A stretch of DNA of 32,000 nucleotides, taken from NCBI RefSeq assembly GCF_000189295.2, contig NC_016803.1, positions 2,640,001 to 2,672,000 on the forward strand, written 5' to 3'. The translations under genes and the position numbers were made by a program. This document shows positions 12,880-23,659 of this stretch, piece after piece. The notes under the pieces are model-generated. The model was not told where the DNA came from. It made no database searches and saw only the letters and a list, made by a program, of their open reading frames with translations. How positions within the stretch are numbered: the stretch's first letter is position 1; every line of letters starts with the position of its first letter. Source of the stretch: Pseudodesulfovibrio mercurii (GTDB lineage Bacteria > Desulfobacterota > Desulfovibrionia > Desulfovibrionales > Desulfovibrionaceae).

Positions 12880-13101
12880 GGTCGTCGGTGATTCCTCGGA
12901 TCGGGCCTCGGGGCCTCGGCACGGGGATAGCGCATATTCCCGAATCCGACAATGGTCGCCTTGAGGGCGGTCCGGGCCGGGCGCCCGCCGGATCGGCGGC
13001 CGGGAAGGCCCGAGATCCGGGGGTTGCCATCCCTCAACTACATATGTATGGGTAGCGCCAGCCGCAGAAACACTGCGGACATCATATATCAGGAGTGCAG
13101 C

Positions 13102-13383
13102 ATGGCAGCCACCGTGGACGAGATCACCATCAACTATTCCGAAGACAACCAGCTCATCGTCAAGGAGCTGGACAAGGTCGTGCTTTCCAAGGGCGCCTGG
13201 ACCACCATCGTGTTCCGCTACCAGGAACTCAACCGCGCCAAGGGCGAATACGGCCCGGACAAGTACACCATCCGCCGCTACCAGAAGGTGGACGGCACCT
13301 ACCGCCCCAAGTCCAAGTTCAACATCTCCTCCCAGGCCCAGGCCAAGAAGATCGTGGACGCCCTGGGCGCCTGGATCGACTAG
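13102..13383 (+). CDS. Small conserved hypothetical protein (93 aa)
   Basis: The ATG at 13102 has AGGAG 6 nt upstream. Lys/Tyr-rich balanced composition. No family recognised. Confidence 0.6.
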   Translation: MAATVDEITINYSEDNQLIVKELDKVVLSKGAWTTIVFRYQELNRAKGEYGPDKYTIRRYQKVDGTYRPKSKFNISSQAQAKKIVDALGAWID

Positions 13384-15164: not shown

Positions 15165-16277
15165 ATGGCTTCAAAGGTCTATTTCTGGAATCTGCGGGCC
15201 TCGTCCAAGGCCCCGTTCGGCAAGAGGATGCGCAGCCTGCTCAAGGCCGCCAAGGCTGATACACTCATCGGCGAAGGCGACCTGGCCGCCGTCAAGCTGC
15301 ACTTCGGCGAAGAGGGCGTGACCGGCTTCCTCCGCCCCCTGTGGGTCAAGCCCATCCTCGACTTCATCGCCAAGGCCGGGGGCAAACCGTTCCTGACCGA
15401 CGCCTCCACCCTGTACGTGGGCCAGCGCGGCGAGGCCGTGTCCCACTCCCTGTGCGCCGCCCGCCACGGCTGGGATCCGCTTGTGCTCGGCGCGCCCGTG
15501 GTCATCGCCGACGGCCTGCGCGGCGAATTCGAGACCGCCGTGCCCGTGGGCGGCAAGCACCTCGAAGAGGTCTACATCGCCGGGGCCATCGCCGAGGCCG
15601 ACTTCCTGGTCTCGGTCAACCATTTCAAGGGCCACGAACTGGCCGGATACGGCGGCGCGCTCAAGAACCTCGGCATGGGCGCGGCCTCCAAGAAAGGCAA
15701 GATGCAACAGCATTTCTCCACCGGCCCGATCATCAACCCGGACAACTGCCAGGCCTGCGAAGCCTGCCTGCGCGCCTGCAAGACCGGCGCCCTCTACATC
15801 GACGAGACCACCGGCAAGATCGCCCTCAACCCGGAAAAATGCGTGGGCTGCGGCGGCTGCTTCGTGGCCTGCCGACACGGCGGCCTCCAGGTCAACTGGG
15901 CGGTCGGCGTCCAGGACTTCCTCGAACGCATGATGGAATACGCCAAGGGCGTCCTGGCCACCAAGACCAAACCCTCCCTGCACGTCAACTTCGTCATGGA
16001 CGTGGTCCCTGACTGCGACTGCGTGGGCTTCACCGACGCCCCCATCTGCCCGGACATCGGCGTGCTCGTCAGCCTCGACCCCGTGGCCGTGGACCAGGCC
16101 TCCATGGACCTCGTAAGCCAGGCCCAGCCCCTCTACCCGAGCCAGCTCCCCTTCGGCGTCACCCCCGGCCAGAACAAGTTCCTCGCCATCCACCAACACG
16201 TCCCCCAGGACTTCGGCCTCGACTACGCCGAACAGATCGGCCTCGGCACCCGAGAATACGAACTCGTCAACATGTAA
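15165..16277 (+). CDS. DUF362 domain protein with an inserted 2x[4Fe-4S] ferredoxin domain
   Basis: 'FLTDASTLY', 'NHFKGHELAGYGGALKNLGMG', and two CxxCxxCxxxC motifs (CQACEACLRAC, CVGCGGCFVAC). Confidence 0.85.
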   Translation: MASKVYFWNLRASSKAPFGKRMRSLLKAAKADTLIGEGDLAAVKLHFGEEGVTGFLRPLWVKPILDFIAKAGGKPFLTDASTLYVGQRGEAVSHSLCAARHGWDPLVLGAPVVIADGLRGEFETAVPVGGKHLEEVYIAGAIAEADFLVSVNHFKGHELAGYGGALKNLGMGAASKKGKMQQHFSTGPIINPDNCQACEACLRACKTGALYIDETTGKIALNPEKCVGCGGCFVACRHGGLQVNWAVGVQDFLERMMEYAKGVLATKTKPSLHVNFVMDVVPDCDCVGFTDAPICPDIGVLVSLDPVAVDQASMDLVSQAQPLYPSQLPFGVTPGQNKFLAIHQHVPQDFGLDYAEQIGLGTREYELVNM

Positions 16278-16282
16278 ACCAA

Positions 16283-16318
16283 CCGGGCCGACGCGGAAAC
16301 GCGTCGGCCCGGCTTTTT
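16283..16318 (+). terminator. Rho-independent terminator after the DUF362 gene
   Basis: 13-bp GC stem CCGGGCCGACGCG / CGCGTCGGCCCGG with a GAAA tetraloop, followed by CTTTTT. Confidence 0.7.
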
Positions 16319-16424: not shown

Positions 16425-18293
16425 CTACGCCCCTTTCGCAACGGTCAGTCCCAACTCCGCCAGCTTGGCGGGAGTGGGGATTCCGGTGCGATCCCAACCC
16501 CTGACATCATAATATTCGTCCAGCATCATATCGAGTTCTTCCCGGCTGATGCATTGTCCCTTGGACCCACCGTGGGCCAGGGGCTCGGAGATGAGCCGGT
16601 CGGGGAGATTGTCGTCAGCACGGGTAAATCCCTGCCGGATGTTGAAGAGACGGGCAAGGTTGTTCACCCGTTCTCCGGCCTTCTGCACCTCTTCGGGCGT
16701 ATAGACCAAACCCGTGACCGCTTCCATGAGGTCCGCGGTATTTTGCAAGGCGATGTCCGGCAGAGCCATGTCCAGCAGGAAGCCGCACATGGTGGGCAGG
16801 TCGGTGGTTGCGGTCCGCACGTCCTGGTTCCAGACGGTCAGCTCGCCCTTGCCTTCGCTGGCAAAGCGGTCCACGGCCTTGGGTACCGGAATGCCGAAGA
16901 GCTCCTGGAAGGCGTAGCCGCGGCAGTGGTCCGCCCCGGTGAAGGAGGTGGCGTAATTCAGGCCGTGGGCCTTGGCGCCGCGAACGTCGTAGGCAGGGAG
17001 TTCGAGGCCCTTGACGTGCATGGCGTACTTGCCGGAGTCCTTGCCAATGAGCTTGCCCGCAATGCGGCTGCCGTCGGCCAGCACCTTGCCGAACCCCTGG
17101 CGGTAGGACATCAGGTGCAGCAGCTCCAGCACTGTCTCCTCGTTGCCGAAGGTCAGGTCCAGGCCGCCGGTGTCCTCAAGGGTGATGATCCCCTTCTGGA
17201 ACAGCTCCATGGCGAACCCGATGGTGACGCCCGAAGACATGGTGTCGATGCCCAGCTCGTCGCACAACCGGTCGGCGGCGATGACGAAGTCCGCGCTGTG
17301 GATGCCCACCGTGCTGCCCAGGGAGTACATGGTCTCGAACTCCGGGCCTTCGGACAGGGTCCCGGCGTGCTTGCCGTCGGTAACCACGCGGACCTGGCTG
17401 CAGCCTACCGGACAGCCGTAGCACGGCTGGGACCCGCGGGTCCGTTTGCCGAATGCCTCGGCGCCCAGGTCGTCGGCCAGGGAGACCTCGCCGGTGGTCA
17501 TGTAGTTGTTGGCCGGGAAGATGCCGAGGGCGCTGGTGGCGTCCACGACCATGGATGTGCCCACCTTGGAGAACTGCGGGTAGAGATGTTCGCTCCGCTT
17601 CATGGCCTGGGTCATTCGCGACCGCGCCGCCTTGAACTTTTCCTCGTCCGCGACCTGGACCTTGCCGGTGCCGCGGATGGCGATGGCCTTGAGGTTCTTG
17701 GACCCCATGACCGCGCCCATGCCCTTGCGGCCCGCGGCGCGCAGTTCGTTGATGATGCAGGCCATACGGGAGAGGTTCTCCCCGGCGGGGCCGATGCAGG
17801 CCACGCGGACGTTGTTGTCGTGGAGCTGGTTGCGGATGGTGGTCTGGCAGTCCGAGGTGCTCATGCCCCACAACTGTCCGGCCTTGCGGAACTTCACGCT
17901 GTCGTTGTCGATCCACAGATAGACGGGCTCTTCCGAGCGACCCTCGATGATCAGGACATCATAACCGGCGAACTTCAGCTCCACCGGGAAATGGCCGCCG
18001 GTAAGCGACAGGGCCATGGCCCCGGTCAAGGGCGAAAGCGCACCCACGGCCATGCGGCTGGCACACGGCACCTTGGTGCCGGAAAAAGGTCCCGAGGCGA
18101 GGACGAGCACATTGTCCGGGCCCAGGGGGTCGGTCCCGGCCTTGACGCTGTCGTACACGATCTTGGTTGTAAATCCGGCACCACCGATGTATTCGCGGGC
18201 CAGATCCTGCGGCAGCGGTTCCACCGTCGACGTCTGCTCGGTCAGATTGATCCGCAAAATTCTGCCAGTATATCCACCATTAAACATTTCCAT
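16425..18293 (-). CDS. aor: Aldehyde:ferredoxin oxidoreductase (tungstopterin AOR family)
   Basis: 622 aa. N-terminus 'GGYTGRILRINLT' is typical of the AOR N-domain. Cys motifs are present that I take to be Fe-S ligands. AAGGAGA precedes the ATG. Confidence 0.9.
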   Translation of the reverse strand: MEMFNGGYTGRILRINLTEQTSTVEPLPQDLAREYIGGAGFTTKIVYDSVKAGTDPLGPDNVLVLASGPFSGTKVPCASRMAVGALSPLTGAMALSLTGGHFPVELKFAGYDVLIIEGRSEEPVYLWIDNDSVKFRKAGQLWGMSTSDCQTTIRNQLHDNNVRVACIGPAGENLSRMACIINELRAAGRKGMGAVMGSKNLKAIAIRGTGKVQVADEEKFKAARSRMTQAMKRSEHLYPQFSKVGTSMVVDATSALGIFPANNYMTTGEVSLADDLGAEAFGKRTRGSQPCYGCPVGCSQVRVVTDGKHAGTLSEGPEFETMYSLGSTVGIHSADFVIAADRLCDELGIDTMSSGVTIGFAMELFQKGIITLEDTGGLDLTFGNEETVLELLHLMSYRQGFGKVLADGSRIAGKLIGKDSGKYAMHVKGLELPAYDVRGAKAHGLNYATSFTGADHCRGYAFQELFGIPVPKAVDRFASEGKGELTVWNQDVRTATTDLPTMCGFLLDMALPDIALQNTADLMEAVTGLVYTPEEVQKAGERVNNLARLFNIRQGFTRADDNLPDRLISEPLAHGGSKGQCISREELDMMLDEYYDVRGWDRTGIPTPAKLAELGLTVAKGA

Positions 18294-18339
18294 TCTCCTT
18301 GGTTGAAATGTTTAAGCACCCAAAAAAGCACTCGATATG

Positions 18340-18624
18340 TTACCCGCCACAGACGGGCGAAAAAATAAGCAGTTCGTCTCCCTCCCCCATGACGGTCTCC
18401 ATGCCGTTGAGAAAACGGACGGTCTGGCCGTTGACCATGAGGAGGTAGTTTTCCTTCAGACAGCCAGGGCTGTCGTACATTTCATCGGCAAGCGGCTTGC
18501 CGAACCGATCCAGCAGGATGGCCATGACGTCGCGCACCGTGCTGTGGTCCGGCACGTCCAGGTCGAAACTCCGGGCACCGAGCACGGCCTTGACCGTGGC
18601 AAAGGAGGCTATGACGATACGCAT
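18340..18624 (-). CDS. MoaD/ThiS-family small beta-grasp protein ending in Gly-Gly
   Basis: About 94 aa ending ..FSPVCGG-stop. The ATG at 18624 has GGAGG 7 nt upstream. It overlaps the end of the upstream gene by 16 nt. Confidence 0.8.
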   Translation of the reverse strand: MRIVIASFATVKAVLGARSFDLDVPDHSTVRDVMAILLDRFGKPLADEMYDSPGCLKENYLLMVNGQTVRFLNGMETVMGEGDELLIFSPVCGG

Positions 18625-18992
18625 GGACATGCCTCCTTCCCGCATCGTTGCATGGCGTCGCGGACCAGTTCGTCCGCTACGGCCAGCACATACGCGATCT
18701 CCTCGGGCGTGGCGTCGTCCAGGTGGATGCCGCAGCTCACCGCCACGGTTCCTCCCCAGACCCCGGCCAGGCAACGGGCCGTATCCACGGCCAGCTCCCT
18801 TTCTTGATGACCGGGGAGCGGCAGCACCGATACGCGGATATCGGCACTGCCCAACCCGCCGGGGACAGCCAGAGCCACAGCTCCGATATGCGACCGGTCA
18901 CCGCCGTGCAGGGCCACGCAATAATCGTTGCCCATACGCACGATGGTCATGCGCAGCAAAAACCGTCCGTTGCCCCGCTCCAGTGAAATCAT
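18609..18992 (-). CDS. lpdD: LpdD-like small subunit / prenylated-flavin chaperone of UbiD-type decarboxylases
   Basis: 127 aa from the ATG at 18992, which overlaps the ubiX stop as ATGA. The motif 'ALHGGDRSHIGAVALA' matches my memory of LpdD (GGD/E-x-HIGAV). Position is directly after UbiD and UbiX. Confidence 0.55.
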   Translation of the reverse strand: MISLERGNGRFLLRMTIVRMGNDYCVALHGGDRSHIGAVALAVPGGLGSADIRVSVLPLPGHQERELAVDTARCLAGVWGGTVAVSCGIHLDDATPEEIAYVLAVADELVRDAMQRCGKEACPCVSS

Positions 18993-19591
18993 GCCGCCTC
19001 CTCGCCGTCCGGGACGGTGGCCTGGCCGTTCCACCGCTTCAACCCGCTGTATTCGATGCCGAACTCGTTAAGGATCTTGCCCACCATGTGGCCAGTCATG
19101 TCCGCAACCGTGCAGGGGTGGGTGTAGTAGGTGAGCATGGGGGGCATGATGACGGCCCCGACCTCGGCCAGGATCGACAGATTGCGCAGGTGAATCCGGC
19201 TCAGCGGCGTCTCCCGTGCGACCACCACGAGCTTGCGTCGTTCCTTGAGCGTGACGTCGGCGGCCCGCAGCAGCAGGTTGTCCGAATACCCGCAGGCGAC
19301 TCCGGCCGCGGTCTTCATGCTGCACGGCACGATGACCATGCCCTCGGTGCGGAAGGTGCCGCTGGCGATGGCCGCACCGATGTCCTCGCGGTCGTATGCC
19401 GTCGCGGCAAGCGCCGTGACTCCCGCCTCCGGAAATCCGGTTTCGTGCAGGAGGGTCCGGGCACCGCTCCGGCTCACCACCAGGTGGGCTTCCCAGTCCG
19501 GCAGGCTGCCCAACGCCCGCAACAGCCCCACGGCCAGCGCCGCGCCGCTGGCCCCGCTGACGCCGACCACCAATCGTTTCTTCGCATCCAT
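18989..19591 (-). CDS. ubiX: Flavin prenyltransferase UbiX
   Basis: 'RLVVGVSGASGA', 'VIVPCSMKT.AG.A.GYSDNLL.RAADV.LKERRKLV' are hallmark UbiX/Pad1 motifs. 200 aa. Confidence 0.92.
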   Translation of the reverse strand: MDAKKRLVVGVSGASGAALAVGLLRALGSLPDWEAHLVVSRSGARTLLHETGFPEAGVTALAATAYDREDIGAAIASGTFRTEGMVIVPCSMKTAAGVACGYSDNLLLRAADVTLKERRKLVVVARETPLSRIHLRNLSILAEVGAVIMPPMLTYYTHPCTVADMTGHMVGKILNEFGIEYSGLKRWNGQATVPDGEEAA

Positions 19592-19609
19592 TGGCCTTGG
19601 TCTCCCTGA

Positions 19610-21067
19610 CTACAGGTACGGGGTCGGATCTATTTCCAGGAACTGCGCCCGGCGGAAATGGTCCCTCATGGCCACGGGCACCGTGCAGTCGAAGAGCGTC
19701 TTGCAGGATATCCCTTCGGCGATGATGGACGGGCTCATGTCGGGTCGCTGGGACGGGTCCAGGGGATGGCAGCGCACGCCGGGGATGGTGACGATGTCCA
19801 CATCCCCCTGCATGCGGGTGGTCATGGCCCAGAGCACGTCGTTGGAGTCGAAGGGGTCCACGTCCTCGTCCACCAGGATGATGTTCTTCAGTTCCGGGAA
19901 TGCGGCGAAGGCGACCAGCGCGGCCTGGCGCTGGCGTCCCTCGTCCGACGGCCCCAATTTTTTGAACTGCAGGACGGCGGTGAGCTTGCCCCCGCCGCAG
20001 GAGTGGGCATAGACGTTTTGCAGACGTCCGGGCATGGCCCGCTCCACCATCTGGATGATGCTCGCCTCGGTGGGAATGCCCGCCAGGCTGACGTGCTCCT
20101 CCGAAGGGCCGATGGTGGTCTGCATAATGGGCCGCACCCGATGGGTGACGGCCTTGACCTTGAAGACGGGAACGGCCGGGTTGGCCGGGCCATTGTAACC
20201 GGGGAACTCGGGCATGGCGTGCCCGGTGAGGGTGTGCTGGTCCTCCTGCACCCGCTTGCCGGGCAAGAGCTCGCCCTCGATGACGATTTCGGCATGGGCG
20301 ATGGCCTTGGTCGACACGCTGACCGCGGGACAGAGCTCCACGGCCCGGCCGCGCAGGCCGCCCGCGATGCGCAGTTCGTTGAACCCCAGGGGCGTTGTCG
20401 GCGGCTCGAAACAGGAAGCCAGGTACACGGCGGGGTCCAGGCCGATGTTGACCGTGATGGGCAGGGCCTCGCCCCGCGCCTCGGCCTTTTGCCGGAAATG
20501 ATCGATGTGCCGCCCCGGCACGAAATACATGGATATCTCGTCCGCGGACTGCAGGCATTGGCGGTGGATGGTCACGTCCTGGTCCCCGTTTTCCGGGTCC
20601 TCGGCGTAGACCAGGCCCATGGTGATGTACGGCCCGGCGTCGTCCGGGGTGTTCGTGGGCGCGGGAAGCAGGGTGCGGATGTCGAACCCGGGGTCCGTGG
20701 CCCGGTGTACGACCTCCTGACAGGGGCCGCTCTCGACCGGCACCGGGTCGATAGGATGCCGCAGCGCCTCGTTCATGCGGAAGCCGAGCCGGTCGGGCGG
20801 CGTCCCCAGCAGACACCCGACGCGTTCGCGGCTGCCCACGATGCCGATGGCCACCCGGGAGTCGGGAAAGCCCTTGATGTTGTTGAACACCATGGCCGGG
20901 CCGGTCTTGGTGGGCCGCATGACGGTGCCGCCCCCGCCGATATACCGGTACACTCCTGCAAGCGCGGCCTCCGGAGACACCTCCACATCGGTTTCGTGAT
21001 ACTGCCCTTCCAGGGTTTTCAGGAAGGCGAGTGCCGACCGCAGGTCCGTTATCTCTTCGCAACGCAT
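19610..21067 (-). CDS. UbiD-family prFMN-dependent (de)carboxylase, AroY/LpdC-like (hydroxybenzoate type)
   Basis: 485 aa from the ATG at 21067. AAGGAG lies 11 nt upstream. The GTG at 21079 abuts the SD. Motifs LLPAPTNTPDDAGP, TGHAMPEFPGY and NIILVDEDVDPFDSNDVLWAMTTRMQGD match my recollection of protocatechuate/gallate decarboxylases. Confidence 0.9.
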   Translation of the reverse strand: MRCEEITDLRSALAFLKTLEGQYHETDVEVSPEAALAGVYRYIGGGGTVMRPTKTGPAMVFNNIKGFPDSRVAIGIVGSRERVGCLLGTPPDRLGFRMNEALRHPIDPVPVESGPCQEVVHRATDPGFDIRTLLPAPTNTPDDAGPYITMGLVYAEDPENGDQDVTIHRQCLQSADEISMYFVPGRHIDHFRQKAEARGEALPITVNIGLDPAVYLASCFEPPTTPLGFNELRIAGGLRGRAVELCPAVSVSTKAIAHAEIVIEGELLPGKRVQEDQHTLTGHAMPEFPGYNGPANPAVPVFKVKAVTHRVRPIMQTTIGPSEEHVSLAGIPTEASIIQMVERAMPGRLQNVYAHSCGGGKLTAVLQFKKLGPSDEGRQRQAALVAFAAFPELKNIILVDEDVDPFDSNDVLWAMTTRMQGDVDIVTIPGVRCHPLDPSQRPDMSPSIIAEGISCKTLFDCTVPVAMRDHFRRAQFLEIDPTPYL

Positions 21068-21130
21068 TATTTCTTGCACTCCTTTACTGCTTCATTCCGA
21101 GGCTTCAATCTACGGACTAAATAACGCTTG

Positions 21131-21173
21131 GGTAAAATACCATTTGTCGTATAGGCTCATATCGAAACGATAT
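21131..21173. promoter_or_regulatory. Two dyads in the lysR/ubiD divergent region (candidate LTTR sites)
   Basis: ATATCG-AAA-CGATAT (21159-21173) contains a T-N11-A box. GGTA-AAA-TACC lies at 21131-21141. Centres are about 30 bp apart. Confidence 0.4.
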
Positions 21174-21227
21174 AGGGTGGCTTCCCCTCCGGCAGGCCCG
21201 GCGCGATCCCGAATTTTCACTGGCGGT

Positions 21228-22229
21228 ATGAAAGGAATGAATTTTACTAAGTTGTTATATTTCAAAACGATTGTTGAACAAGGACAGATCAGCCGCGCGG
21301 CCCGGGTCCTGCACATGTCCCAACCCCCGCTCAGCCAGCGTCTCAAGGAATTGGAAGATGAGCTGGGGGTGACGCTCATCGAACGCGCCGGCACCAACTG
21401 GGCCGTCACCAGCGAGGGCAAGGCCCTGTATCAGCGGGCCCTGGACATCCTCGACCTGGTGAATGGCATCCCCGATGAAATCCAGGCTTCCCGGCTCGGG
21501 GTCGAAGGGCTGGTCACCCTCGGTTGCACCACCCTTTCCCTGTCGCTGCTGGCCCAGTTCATCCCGGCCATGAACCGGCTGCACCCCAGGATCGCCATCC
21601 GCCTGCTGGTGGACGACAGCACGGTGTTGAAACACAAGCTTGCGGAGCACGCCATCGACTTTTGCGTGACCATCACGCCGTTTACGGAGACGGGGCTGCA
21701 CATCATCCCCCTGCAACCGACCGAGTCGGTCCTCGTGGTGCCGCCATCCCTGGCCACGCCGTCCTTCACCCGGGCTGCGGCGTCCGGTGTGGAGTTGGAC
21801 ATTAGGGAATTGCACGAAAAGCCGTTGGTGATATTCCGCCGGTTCGACGGCGGGGGCACGTACATGAAGACCATGGACATCCTGCACGAATACAAGGTGA
21901 AGCCGAAAATCATTCTGGACAGCCCGGACGGTCGCATCCTGCTCGACATGCTGGAACAGGGACTGGAAGCCATGGCCCTGGTGCCGGGTAGTGAAATTCC
22001 CGAACGACTCAAGGATACGTTCGTCTTCTGCCGCCTTCCCGACTCCTTTCCGAAAATCATGCCCTGTCTGGCCGTGGTCAAGAACCGGTACCTGCCGCGG
22101 GCATCAAGGACCGTCTGGAAGGAGTTGTGCGCCTTCACCCATCGTCCGGACGTTGTTCCCGGAGCCGAGACGCCAGGGGAGTGCACGCTCTTCCCCTCCG
22201 ATACGAACGTGCCCGCATCCGATCCATAA
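21228..22229 (+). CDS. LysR-family transcriptional regulator
   Basis: HTH 'LLYFKTIVEQGQISRAARVLHMSQPPLSQRLKELEDELGVTLIER'. Start is the ATG at 21228 or 21237; the track start at 21144 is unlikely. Divergent from the UbiD operon. Confidence 0.88.
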   Translation: MKGMNFTKLLYFKTIVEQGQISRAARVLHMSQPPLSQRLKELEDELGVTLIERAGTNWAVTSEGKALYQRALDILDLVNGIPDEIQASRLGVEGLVTLGCTTLSLSLLAQFIPAMNRLHPRIAIRLLVDDSTVLKHKLAEHAIDFCVTITPFTETGLHIIPLQPTESVLVVPPSLATPSFTRAAASGVELDIRELHEKPLVIFRRFDGGGTYMKTMDILHEYKVKPKIILDSPDGRILLDMLEQGLEAMALVPGSEIPERLKDTFVFCRLPDSFPKIMPCLAVVKNRYLPRASRTVWKELCAFTHRPDVVPGAETPGECTLFPSDTNVPASDP

Positions 22230-22250
22230 GGACGCGGACGCGGGCATTTT
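22211..22250 (+). terminator. Possible terminator at the end of lysR
   Basis: GCCCGCATCCG (22211-22221) pairs with CGGACGCGGGC (22235-22245), one mismatch, followed by ATTTT. Confidence 0.35.
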
Positions 22251-22275
22251 AGGGGGTGAAGGCGAAACGTCAAAC

Positions 22276-23385
22276 TCAGCGGCGGATCGGCCAGAATTCG
22301 AAATACTCCGTCATGGCGACAATGACCGGGAAGGTGATGGACAGCAACGCATTGGCCAGCCAGAGTTCCAGGTCGTAGGTGGGCGAGCCCGACGGGAGGG
22401 GAACCCCCGCGAGGAACGGAGCCACCGCCGCATAGACGTAATACATGACAAAGGCATAGACCGCCGACAACAAGGCGAGTGACAGGCCGCGCCGGGGCTG
22501 CCCCATTGAGGCGAACAGGCGGTGCTGCATCAGGCTGTCGGCCAGGAACACTCCGAAGATGAAACAGACGGGAATCTTGACCAGATAGACCACGGTGTCC
22601 ATTCCGAATCCCTTGACGAACAGGTTCCAGCAGGCCAGGCCCAGGCACAGGACGATCAGGGTGGCGACGATCTTGACCACGCCCTCGCTCCGCTTGCCGA
22701 TGAGCTTGGTGACCAGGGTCATCTCCGACAGGGCCAGGACGAGAATCGCGCAGCTTAAGGTCACGAAGAACGAGATGGCGGACCAGGCGTTCACAAGCCC
22801 CTTGGGGTCAAGCGTCTCCACATACACGGGCGCACCGGCCAGGAAGGAGAAATCGAACAGCCACCGGAACAGCGCATAGGCGATGACGTAACAGGCCACC
22901 AGGGTGCCTGCCCCCAGCAACAACGGATTTTTCAGGAACAGCTTCAGCGGCCACCCCTGCATGAGCGGCACCATCCAGAAGGTCACAACAATGCTCAGGA
23001 TGGAATACTGAATGAGCATCGGCGTAGGCGGTCCTACGCTCTTGCCGACCAGGACAAAGGTGGAATAGGCGACAATGGCCGTCCCCACGACGGTGATCAG
23101 CGTCAGCACCAGTCCCTTGGTCGGCTGCGGCAGCGAAACAATGAACGGGGGATAGCTGCAGCGCCACAGCATGGCCACCACTAACTGGACAGGTACGGCG
23201 CACATGAAGACAAATGATCCCCATGTGGAAAGAAATTCATTGCCGAATACATACAGTATCCCAAACGCAATGCACAATATAATGGCAAAGTCTGCAATAC
23301 CCTGCGTAAACAGTTTTAGCGTAACATTATCTGAAATAGCTTGTTCCGCAACAACAACTCCCTGTACTTCCTGTGAATCGGACAC
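22276..23385 (-). CDS. Polytopic integral membrane protein (about 10 TM), family not recognised; putative transporter
   Basis: 369 aa. The GTG start at 23385 has GAGAGAGGG upstream. Hydrophobic segments throughout. The 5' about 200 nt is clearly AT-richer than the rest. Confidence 0.7.
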   Translation of the reverse strand: MSDSQEVQGVVVAEQAISDNVTLKLFTQGIADFAIILCIAFGILYVFGNEFLSTWGSFVFMCAVPVQLVVAMLWRCSYPPFIVSLPQPTKGLVLTLITVVGTAIVAYSTFVLVGKSVGPPTPMLIQYSILSIVVTFWMVPLMQGWPLKLFLKNPLLLGAGTLVACYVIAYALFRWLFDFSFLAGAPVYVETLDPKGLVNAWSAISFFVTLSCAILVLALSEMTLVTKLIGKRSEGVVKIVATLIVLCLGLACWNLFVKGFGMDTVVYLVKIPVCFIFGVFLADSLMQHRLFASMGQPRRGLSLALLSAVYAFVMYYVYAAVAPFLAGVPLPSGSPTYDLELWLANALLSITFPVIVAMTEYFEFWPIRR

Positions 23386-23408
23386 GACTTACCCTCTCTC
23401 ATGTATAC

Positions 23409-23476
23409 TGTGAATAGACACATTTCCAGATTCACAAGCATAGACCAGAATTGCGCAATAAATGAAAATATCATTT
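23409..23476. promoter_or_regulatory. AT-rich control region with two inverted repeats upstream of the membrane-protein gene
   Basis: TGTGAAT-N14-ATTCACA (23409-23436) and AAATGA-AAATA-TCATTT (23460-23476). Confidence 0.25.
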
Positions 23477-23659
23477 GCAAAATAAATTCATATCAAACGG
23501 ATATACGGGGCTGAGAGAAGGCTGAAATGGGTCCAGTTTGTGGACCCACTGGGCTGCCGCCCCGACGCGAACACTTCGGGGCACCGCCTGCCCGCCACCC
23601 GCCAATCCCTCCGCGAACAATCCCCGTCCTCTTGCGTCCGCACCTTCGCCGCAGGCGAC

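Follow-up and report, generated by a model that had tools for sequence, protein, structure and literature searches.

What does an obligately anaerobic sulfate reducer gain from keeping an aromatic-acid decarboxylase and a tungsten-type aldehyde oxidoreductase in one string of genes? We address this question on a stretch of 32,000 nucleotides from Pseudodesulfovibrio mercurii (contig NC_016803.1, positions 2,640,001 to 2,672,000; this whole stretch is referred to as the window, and positions below count from its first letter), in which the genes for a UbiD-family decarboxylase, UbiX, an LpdD-like protein, a ThiS/MoaD-like protein and an aldehyde:ferredoxin oxidoreductase (AOR) follow one another. 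Our preferred answer, to which we lean without holding it firmly, is a LysR-controlled catabolic or detoxification operon that converts a phenolic (hydroxy- or methoxy-) aldehyde to the acid and the acid to a phenol plus CO2. The observations behind this answer are the identities of the genes, their tight packing on one strand, a further lineage that has the same linkage of the two enzyme modules, and a neighbouring cassette of regulator and membrane protein that is tied to aldehyde oxidoreductases. That AOR and UbiD work in series, and on which substrates and in which direction, we infer from this context.

The UbiD and AOR proteins are 100% identical to NCBI entries for P. mercurii, and the window belongs to the lineage of strain ND132. 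The five genes are tightly packed and co-directional on the minus strand, as follows:

19610-21067, minus strand: UbiD-family (de)carboxylase, predicted AroY/LpdC type, 485 aa, first gene of the operon
18989-19591, minus strand: UbiX flavin prenyltransferase, the maker of reduced prenylated flavin mononucleotide (prFMNH2), matched in NCBIfam and Pfam
18609-18992, minus strand: LpdD-family small protein, putative prFMNH2 chaperone, 127 aa, Pfam PF21758
18340-18624, minus strand: ThiS/MoaD-like protein ('WorX'), 94 aa, Gly-Gly end, Pfam ThiS
16425-18287, minus strand: predicted Class I single-subunit AOR, 620 aa, last gene of the operon

A first-pass annotation, made from the letters of the window, had given these coordinates, gaps and overlaps and the Gly-Gly end; all of them hold on re-checking, and only the AOR start shifts, from 18293 to the likelier ATG at 18287, which yields 620 aa as in the NCBI annotation and has AAGGAG 7 nt upstream. 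The UbiD ATG is served by an AAGGAG ribosome-binding site 11 nt upstream, and 18 nt separate ubiD from ubiX. The stop codon of ubiX and the start codon of the LpdD-like gene share the sequence ATGA (18992-18989), the lpdD and MoaD-like genes overlap by 16 nt, with the MoaD-like start (ATG 18624) preceded by GGAGG at 7 nt, and a gap of 46 nt leads to AOR if its start is taken at 18293. In a pattern scan neither internal junction, lpdD/moaD or moaD-aor, contains a terminator-like site, and in its folding the moaD-aor gap does not stand out from shuffled sequence (z = -1.3); on these two grounds we reject a terminator or attenuator between moaD and aor, in agreement with the first-pass statement that the gap holds no hairpin. 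The first strong hairpin found by the scan lies beyond AOR:

16283-16312, no strand: hairpin of 13 bp, rich in GC, with the convergent AOR and DUF362 genes on either side, from the pattern scan

It is likely the end of both the AOR and the DUF362 transcripts, and the five genes are presumably co-transcribed. A separate 7-bp hairpin on the minus strand (18342-18358) overlaps the moaD stop codon, and a U-rich stretch follows, with UUUUUU some 14 nt further on; as a terminator it is non-canonical and its fold is not significant (z = -1.3), and partial attenuation ahead of aor is conceivable.

Family searches give significant matches for all five proteins, so the modules named at first pass (UbiD, UbiX, LpdD, MoaD-like and tungsten-type AOR) are borne out. 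The UbiD protein scores above the gathering cutoffs of Pfam UbiD_N, UbiD and UbiD_C, and the solved AroY enzymes 5ny5 and 5o3m (Enterobacter, Klebsiella) match it over the full length with 686 bits and about 64% identity; the next-best PDB relative reaches 213 bits and E. coli UbiD about 101 bits. The TIHR and IEGE motifs, which we take to carry catalytic residues, align between UbiD and AroY. The NCBIfam models for ubiquinone UbiD (PRK10922), for the menaquinone enzyme and for phenylphosphate carboxylase all have cutoffs far above the score of this protein. Because the AroY match is strong and these other models fall so far short, we assign the protein by sequence to the AroY/LpdC type, with prFMN-dependent decarboxylation of protocatechuate or gallate as its predicted activity. 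The clade in which it falls holds homologues with 61-83% identity, Enterobacter among them, and the expectation that UbiD would group with aromatic-acid enzymes, with an LpdD-like protein beside it, stands. A VdcBCD/EcdBCD-type assignment was considered and rejected, since the scores for VdcC (441, cutoff 650) and VdcB (246, cutoff 290) stay below the required values and no VdcD-type subunit is present. UbiX lies above the curated cutoffs of NF004685 (237.8 against 188) and TIGR00421 (215 against 108.9) and matches Pfam Flavoprotein. The LpdD-like protein matches Pfam PF21758 with E = 5e-31 (107 bits, cutoff 27) and, weakly, the solved LpdD (PDB 8p4w; E = 0.0075, residues 15-113), and it has no match among the NCBIfam models, VdcD included. 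LpdD is a prFMNH2-binding chaperone that aids UbiD activation (PMC10865409), and the same role is putative for the P. mercurii protein.

The last gene of the string encodes a protein with AFOR_N and AFOR_C domains that matches the P. furiosus AOR (1aor) with 437 bits. In PfAOR numbering it retains Cys288/291/295/494, which we take to be the [4Fe-4S] cysteine ligands. It also retains Thr243, Glu313, Tyr427 and His448 from the catalytic-residue list of PMC13328260. No genes for WorS, WorN or WorABC, for a small or FAD subunit or for bifurcation accompany it, its operon partners being UbiD, UbiX, LpdD and ThiS only, and in the scheme of PMC13328260 its sequence places it as a Class I tungsten oxidoreductase (WOR) with a ThiS-like WorX. 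Its pterin site presumably holds tungsten, and ferredoxin is the predicted redox partner. The 94-aa protein encoded just ahead of it ends in VCGG and scores 35.8 against Pfam ThiS PF02597 (cutoff 22.5), and it reaches 55.2 with the curated subfamily SAMP1 (cutoff 60) and 46 with moaD_arch (cutoff 49.5). A ThiS-like partner of tungsten oxidoreductases is known as WorX (PMC13328260), and MoaD-like aorD/aorE accompany the Aromatoleum AOR (PMC6365974). In every close AOR homologue examined (window, L003, L085, L086, L087, L088) a ThiS gene lies directly upstream, and the protein presumably acts in pterin-cofactor maturation for AOR.

To what extent are the two modules linked outside P. mercurii? 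Our survey set comprises 80 genomes at species level whose UbiD is 61-83% identical, including 52 loci with at least 5 kb on both flanks; the neighbours of UbiD in this set include UbiX (65/80), LpdD (38/80) and LysR (13/80), and UbiD-UbiX-LpdD is a common module. The linkage with AOR recurs only in two ENA metagenome contigs, L003 and L085, which are 88-90% identical at the nucleotide level and thus represent one further lineage. Their gene order is UbiD-UbiX-SDR-ThiS-AOR (SDR, short-chain dehydrogenase/reductase), with identities to the window of 80-82% for UbiD, 67-71% for UbiX, 44-47% for MoaD and 75-76% for AOR. In L085 the C-terminal third of lpdD is left between ubiX and the SDR gene (L085:8600-8750, …VVSVSCSIHLDKITEEEINDVLRGTNSLVAEAI…), so LpdD once stood at this place in that lineage and has since decayed; in L003 the remnant is gone altogether, and the lineage apparently runs an AroY-type UbiD without an adjacent LpdD. 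The SDR of L085 passes the NCBIfam model for coniferyl-alcohol dehydrogenase (318 bits, cutoff 242), and the L085 variant therefore codes together for alcohol to aldehyde, aldehyde to acid and acid to phenol activities, the SDR adding an aromatic alcohol oxidation to the same node. The linkage has been retained in L085 despite gene turnover and a swap of the regulator for a sigma-54 activator, and the neighbours there are arylsulfotransferase, sulfatase-like and Phenol_MetA_deg genes. When 5.8 billion proteins were searched with AOR through a word index, only P0122 (76%, from the L003/L085 lineage) stood above a plateau at 69%, so the arrangement is rare. The AOR relatives that come next (66-69%, on Desulfobacteraceae-type contigs) keep ThiS upstream and have MarR, Zn-dependent alcohol dehydrogenase (ADH) or CoA-ligase neighbours, never UbiD; ThiS-AOR is a known, self-contained mobile unit.

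These comparisons bear on the junction between the modules. The first-pass annotation held that the lpdD/moaD overlap ties the decarboxylase module to the AOR module, and as a physical tie this stands. A functional interaction between LpdD and MoaD, which the overlap might be thought to imply, we reject, since ThiS-AOR occurs without UbiD or LpdD and since the LpdD tail appears to be derived from the junction itself. This C-terminal tail (...CGKEACPCVSS) is unique to P. mercurii and absent from the homologues, and it is coded by the ribosome-binding site and start region of moaD, so that it looks like a junction signature. As the MoaD-AOR unit (WorX-WorL) existed beforehand, the overlap marks a fusion junction rather than a functional contact.

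The region upstream of the operon, and the genes beyond it, provide further evidence:

21068-21227, no strand: divergent control region with two dyads, 160 nt
21228-22229, plus strand: LysR-type regulator with HTH_1 and LysR_substrate domains
22276-23385, minus strand: membrane protein DND132_2401 of an unnamed two-repeat family, candidate permease, 369 aa

The regulator, identified by these two Pfam domains, is divergent from UbiD, and the dyads that the first-pass annotation had placed in the shared region are indeed found there. Dyad 1 is GGTA-N3-TACC (GGTAAAATACC, 21131-21141); dyad 2 is ATATCG-N3-CGATAT (ATATCGAAACGATAT, 21159-21173) and contains a T-N11-A box. Both are predicted LysR operators. 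This LysR is 80% identical to the one in L089 and only 53% identical to the LysR at the UbiD cluster of L001, and the similarity to L089 extends to the DNA: window positions 21091-23234 show 74% nucleotide identity to L089 (L089:10152-12291) over the membrane gene, lysR and nearly all of the control region. The segment GGGTAAAATACCATTTGTCGTATAGG is identical in the two, and the second dyad has changed symmetrically, from ATATCGAAACGATAT in the window to ATATCAAAATGATAT in L089, and so remains a dyad. There, the promoter sits upstream of a molybdenum-cofactor (Moco) biosynthesis gene and a MOP-type aldehyde oxidoreductase; MOP-type molybdenum (Mo) enzymes of this kind oxidise aldehydes. From the shared LysR and operator it follows that one regulatory and transport cassette serves a Mo-aldehyde oxidoreductase in L089 and the UbiD to AOR string in P. 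mercurii, and from their retention at the L089 MOP locus that aldehyde oxidation is the common regulated function. The composition of the cassette is foreign to its surroundings: the segment holding LysR, membrane gene and control region (21068-23500) has a GC fraction of 0.57 against 0.67 in the flanks, close to the 0.58 of L089, and its GC at third codon positions (GC3) is 0.76-0.77 against 0.90-0.95 in the flanks. The locus is therefore a mosaic, and these values suggest that the cassette was laterally acquired.

DND132_2401 lies outside the five-gene string and is convergent with LysR, and it is therefore a separate transcription unit. The first-pass description of a 369-aa membrane protein of no recognisable family is confirmed in that neither Pfam nor NCBIfam has a match; relatives do exist, 26 by word-index search and 431 representatives by exhaustive HMMER. 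The alignment of the 26 homologues backs the 369-aa start, and the start annotated by NCBI (309 aa) would drop the invariant Trp55 and the first transmembrane (TM) helix. An AlphaFold2 model (pLDDT 88, pTM 0.86) has 11 long helices and no meaningful Foldseek match in the PDB (best E = 0.09, TM-score < 0.3). The two halves of the protein are homologous (hhalign probability 94.8%, E = 5e-8) and repeat an invariant QPxK/RG motif, and this two-repeat build is that of a secondary transporter. All five lineages with at least 52% identity to DND132_2401 adjoin an aldehyde oxidoreductase of the pterin kind, which is a W-AOR in some and a Mo-MOP in others. The L085 homologue (52%) is directly beside AOR; others are beside MOP-type Mo-aldehyde oxidoreductases in L089/L090 (64%) and in L091 and L175 (55%), where the MOP enzymes pass the equivalog model NF045668; in L091 and L175 the homologue precedes the MOP enzyme and two Fe-ADHs. 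At 34% identity, a homologue occurs within a Pseudomonas catechol meta-cleavage operon beside a Phenol_MetA_deg porin. The 134 open reading frames (ORFs) near homologues of 35-54% identity, distant ones from soil included, are mixed (esterases, LysR, NmrA, cupins, HpaB, Aldedh) and weakly informative. DND132_2401 is probably a permease for an aromatic substrate or product, and we treat it as a candidate for that role.

How might these parts work together? In the model that we prefer, the Class I AOR would first oxidise a plant-derived phenolic aldehyde to the hydroxybenzoic acid and reduce ferredoxin, its maturation aided by the ThiS/MoaD-like partner. The AroY-type UbiD, loaded with prFMN that UbiX would make and LpdD pass on, would then release the carboxyl group as CO2 and leave catechol, pyrogallol or a related phenol, and DND132_2401 would transport either the aromatic substrate or the aromatic product, by uptake or export. 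The net effect would be the oxidative removal of the formyl group, with two low-potential electrons made available for sulfate reduction or H2 production, and decarboxylation would use up the acid and so pull aldehyde oxidation forward. Oxidation of substituted benzaldehydes to the corresponding acids is known from some strains of Desulfovibrio. We favour the direction from aldehyde to phenol because the acid/aldehyde couple has an E0' of about -0.5 to -0.6 V, which makes acid reduction very unfavourable (PMC6365974); benzoate reduction by AOR is barely detectable, even then requiring Ti(III) citrate and a pH of 5, and AORs oxidise aromatic aldehydes including p-hydroxybenzaldehyde, with very broad substrate ranges (PMC6365974). 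The first-pass annotation had proposed the same two-step route; its order of steps gains support from the SDR variant and from the cassette at Mo-aldehyde oxidoreductases, and its substrates and direction we still only infer.

Several findings weigh against this model. Given the broad range of AOR, both enzymes could act on unrelated substrates, and the substrate range of the AroY family (protocatechuate, gallate, others) cannot be read from sequence. Neither AOR nor MoaD occurs within 10 kb of UbiD in any of the surveyed species genomes (0/80), and the three nearest clusters, those of L001, L005 and L006 (Pseudodesulfovibrio/Desulfovibrionaceae, UbiD 79-83%), have no AOR; their order is LysR | UbiD-(DUF554)-UbiX-LpdD, followed by unrelated genes. 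Conservation of the linkage in relatives, which had been set as a check at first pass, is thus found in one other lineage and fails in these three clusters and in the 80 genomes. A tree of UbiD supports a clade of the six Desulfovibrionaceae sequences (193/200 bootstraps), within which the AOR-bearing UbiDs are not monophyletic (4/200 bootstraps); its inner branching has the form of a star. A single ancient fusion followed by two losses is one possible history, repeated fusion or transfer another. With the foreign composition of its LysR-membrane segment, the locus is a mosaic and may be of recent making. Finally, in the literature searched we found no transcript, induction or enzyme work on these genes.

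The alternative that survives best, which we consider possible and clearly less probable than the serial route, is that the two enzymes act in parallel as part of a general response to plant or lignin phenolics: AOR would detoxify assorted aldehydes, AroY would separately decarboxylate imported phenolic acids such as protocatechuate and gallate, and the product of one would not be the main substrate of the other. The very broad AOR substrate ranges fit such a scheme, as do the stand-alone occurrence of UbiD-UbiX-LpdD in most genomes (UbiX 65/80, LpdD 38/80) and of ThiS-AOR elsewhere beside MarR, ADH or CoA-ligase, and the position of the 75%-identical UbiD of L004 amid tannase-like esterases, where the acid is supplied directly. 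However, parallel action does not lead one to expect that the linkage persists in two lineages although genes separating and flanking the modules have come and gone, that an aromatic-alcohol-dehydrogenase-like SDR is inserted exactly between them, or that both answer to a single regulator and operator that elsewhere control an aldehyde oxidoreductase alone.

It is also conceivable, and in our view unlikely, that the juxtaposition arose by chance, a mobile ThiS-AOR having recombined behind lpdD, where it is read through with no selected relation to the decarboxylase. ThiS-AOR is self-contained and found in many contexts, the LpdD tail is a junction artefact over the moaD ribosome-binding site, the locus is mosaic in composition and the linkage is rare, all as chance would have it; yet the adjacency in L003/L085 at 75-82% protein identity (MoaD 44-47%) speaks for long retention, and the membrane-protein partner travels along. 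The reverse route, in which UbiD carboxylates catechol or pyrogallol, a ferredoxin-driven AOR reduces the acid to the aldehyde and, in L003/L085, the SDR carries it on to the alcohol, we judge highly improbable: UbiD is reversible and cascades of UbiD with carboxylic acid reductase (CAR) work in vitro (PMC8988006), AORs reduce acids given very low-potential donors and a downstream SDR could pull the equilibrium, but both steps are endergonic physiologically (E0' about -0.5 to -0.6 V), the P. mercurii locus has no aldehyde consumer, and the LysR/membrane cassette is otherwise tied to MOP-type Mo-aldehyde oxidoreductases. Scarcely better is the chance that UbiD and AOR perform a natural ferredoxin-driven reductive carboxylation and that the DND132_2401 family are new aromatic aldehyde/phenol permeases; if true, the C-H carboxylation cascades engineered from UbiD and CAR would have their first natural counterpart in this reductive carboxylation.

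We therefore return to the serial route from aldehyde to phenol and compare its parts with known systems. Taken singly, the parts are ordinary members of known families (AroY/LpdC-type UbiD, UbiX, LpdD, WorX/ThiS, Class I WOR, LysR-type regulator), insofar as sequence assigns them. The AroY enzymes of Enterobacter cloacae and Klebsiella pneumoniae resemble the P. mercurii UbiD over their full length (about 64% identity), and the gallate decarboxylase LpdB/C/D of Lactiplantibacillus plantarum likewise combines UbiD with UbiX and an LpdD-family protein. In contrast to both, the P. mercurii module is fused to ThiS-AOR, shares its LysR with aldehyde oxidoreductase loci and belongs to an obligately anaerobic sulfate reducer. 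The AOR in turn is like the PfAOR-type Class I WORs with WorX (PMC13328260) in its single large subunit, its kept residues and the ThiS-like gene upstream, and like the Aromatoleum aromaticum AOR (aorD/aorE) in having a ThiS/MoaD-like gene; unlike other WORs, it has UbiD, UbiX and LpdD in its neighbourhood, which we found reported for none in the literature searched. In loci comparable to those of the Desulfovibrio gigas MOP-type Mo-aldehyde oxidoreductase, orthologues of the LysR (80%), the operator and the membrane protein (64%) flank a MOP-type enzyme (L089/L090), whereas in P. mercurii the regulated position holds a W-type AOR and a decarboxylase module in place of the Mo enzyme. Engineered UbiD plus CAR cascades pair a prFMN (de)carboxylase with an acid-aldehyde enzyme in the same way, but these are artificial, driven by ATP and NADPH and directed towards the aldehyde, whereas the P. 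mercurii pairing is natural, ferredoxin-linked and most likely runs in the opposite, exergonic direction. What is new is the fusion of both modules, presumably under one promoter, its recurrence with an aromatic-alcohol-dehydrogenase-like gene, and its tie to an unnamed membrane family and a LysR/operator cassette common to Mo-aldehyde oxidoreductase loci. The first-pass remark that no characterised operon joins these modules agrees with our literature search, in which neither a UbiD plus AOR operon nor the locus tags DND132_2395-2400 led to a paper.

A few further observations concern the surroundings of these genes. In L001 a gene for a DUF554 membrane protein (L001:11532-12245), which P. 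mercurii does not have, lies between ubiD and ubiX, and the ubiD-ubiX gaps of L005 and L006 are large enough for a gene of this type. The UbiD of L004 (L004:10001-11898, 75% identical) has LpdD present and UbiX not adjacent, and its neighbours are tannase/feruloyl-esterase-like genes, a major facilitator superfamily transporter, a nitroreductase and a flavin reductase; a tannin/gallate context is likely, with one UbiD clade plugged into differing upstream steps. The DUF362 protein convergent to AOR (15165-16277, plus strand) has two [4Fe-4S] motifs and a weak Lar_N match, and L011 has a 43% homologue of it at a distance of about 9 kb from UbiD. A 143-aa ORF (12952-13383, plus strand) has coding-like composition (GC3 0.89) and no Pfam match. 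An Rfam scan of the whole window returned nothing at gathering score, neither a riboswitch for the molybdenum or tungsten cofactor (Moco/Tuco) nor any other RNA, and a search for tRNA genes or an integration site as signs of an island found no tRNA genes.

Beyond this locus, a physiological role has been defined for just 5 of 92 tungsten oxidoreductase clades (PMC13328260), and the genomic context described here gives one WOR clade a testable role, aromatic aldehyde oxidation feeding an AroY-type decarboxylase. The unnamed family of DND132_2401, with no PDB fold match and a consistent link to aldehyde oxidoreductases, is flagged as a candidate transporter. For biocatalytic one-carbon chemistry it is of interest that nature pairs a prFMN (de)carboxylase and an acid/aldehyde redox enzyme. 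If the serial route from aldehyde to phenol is true, a sulfate reducer that does not degrade the aromatic ring would gain electrons from lignin- or tannin-derived phenolic aldehydes and release catechol-type products, which would bear on carbon turnover in sediments and on the ecology of this mercury-methylating model strain.

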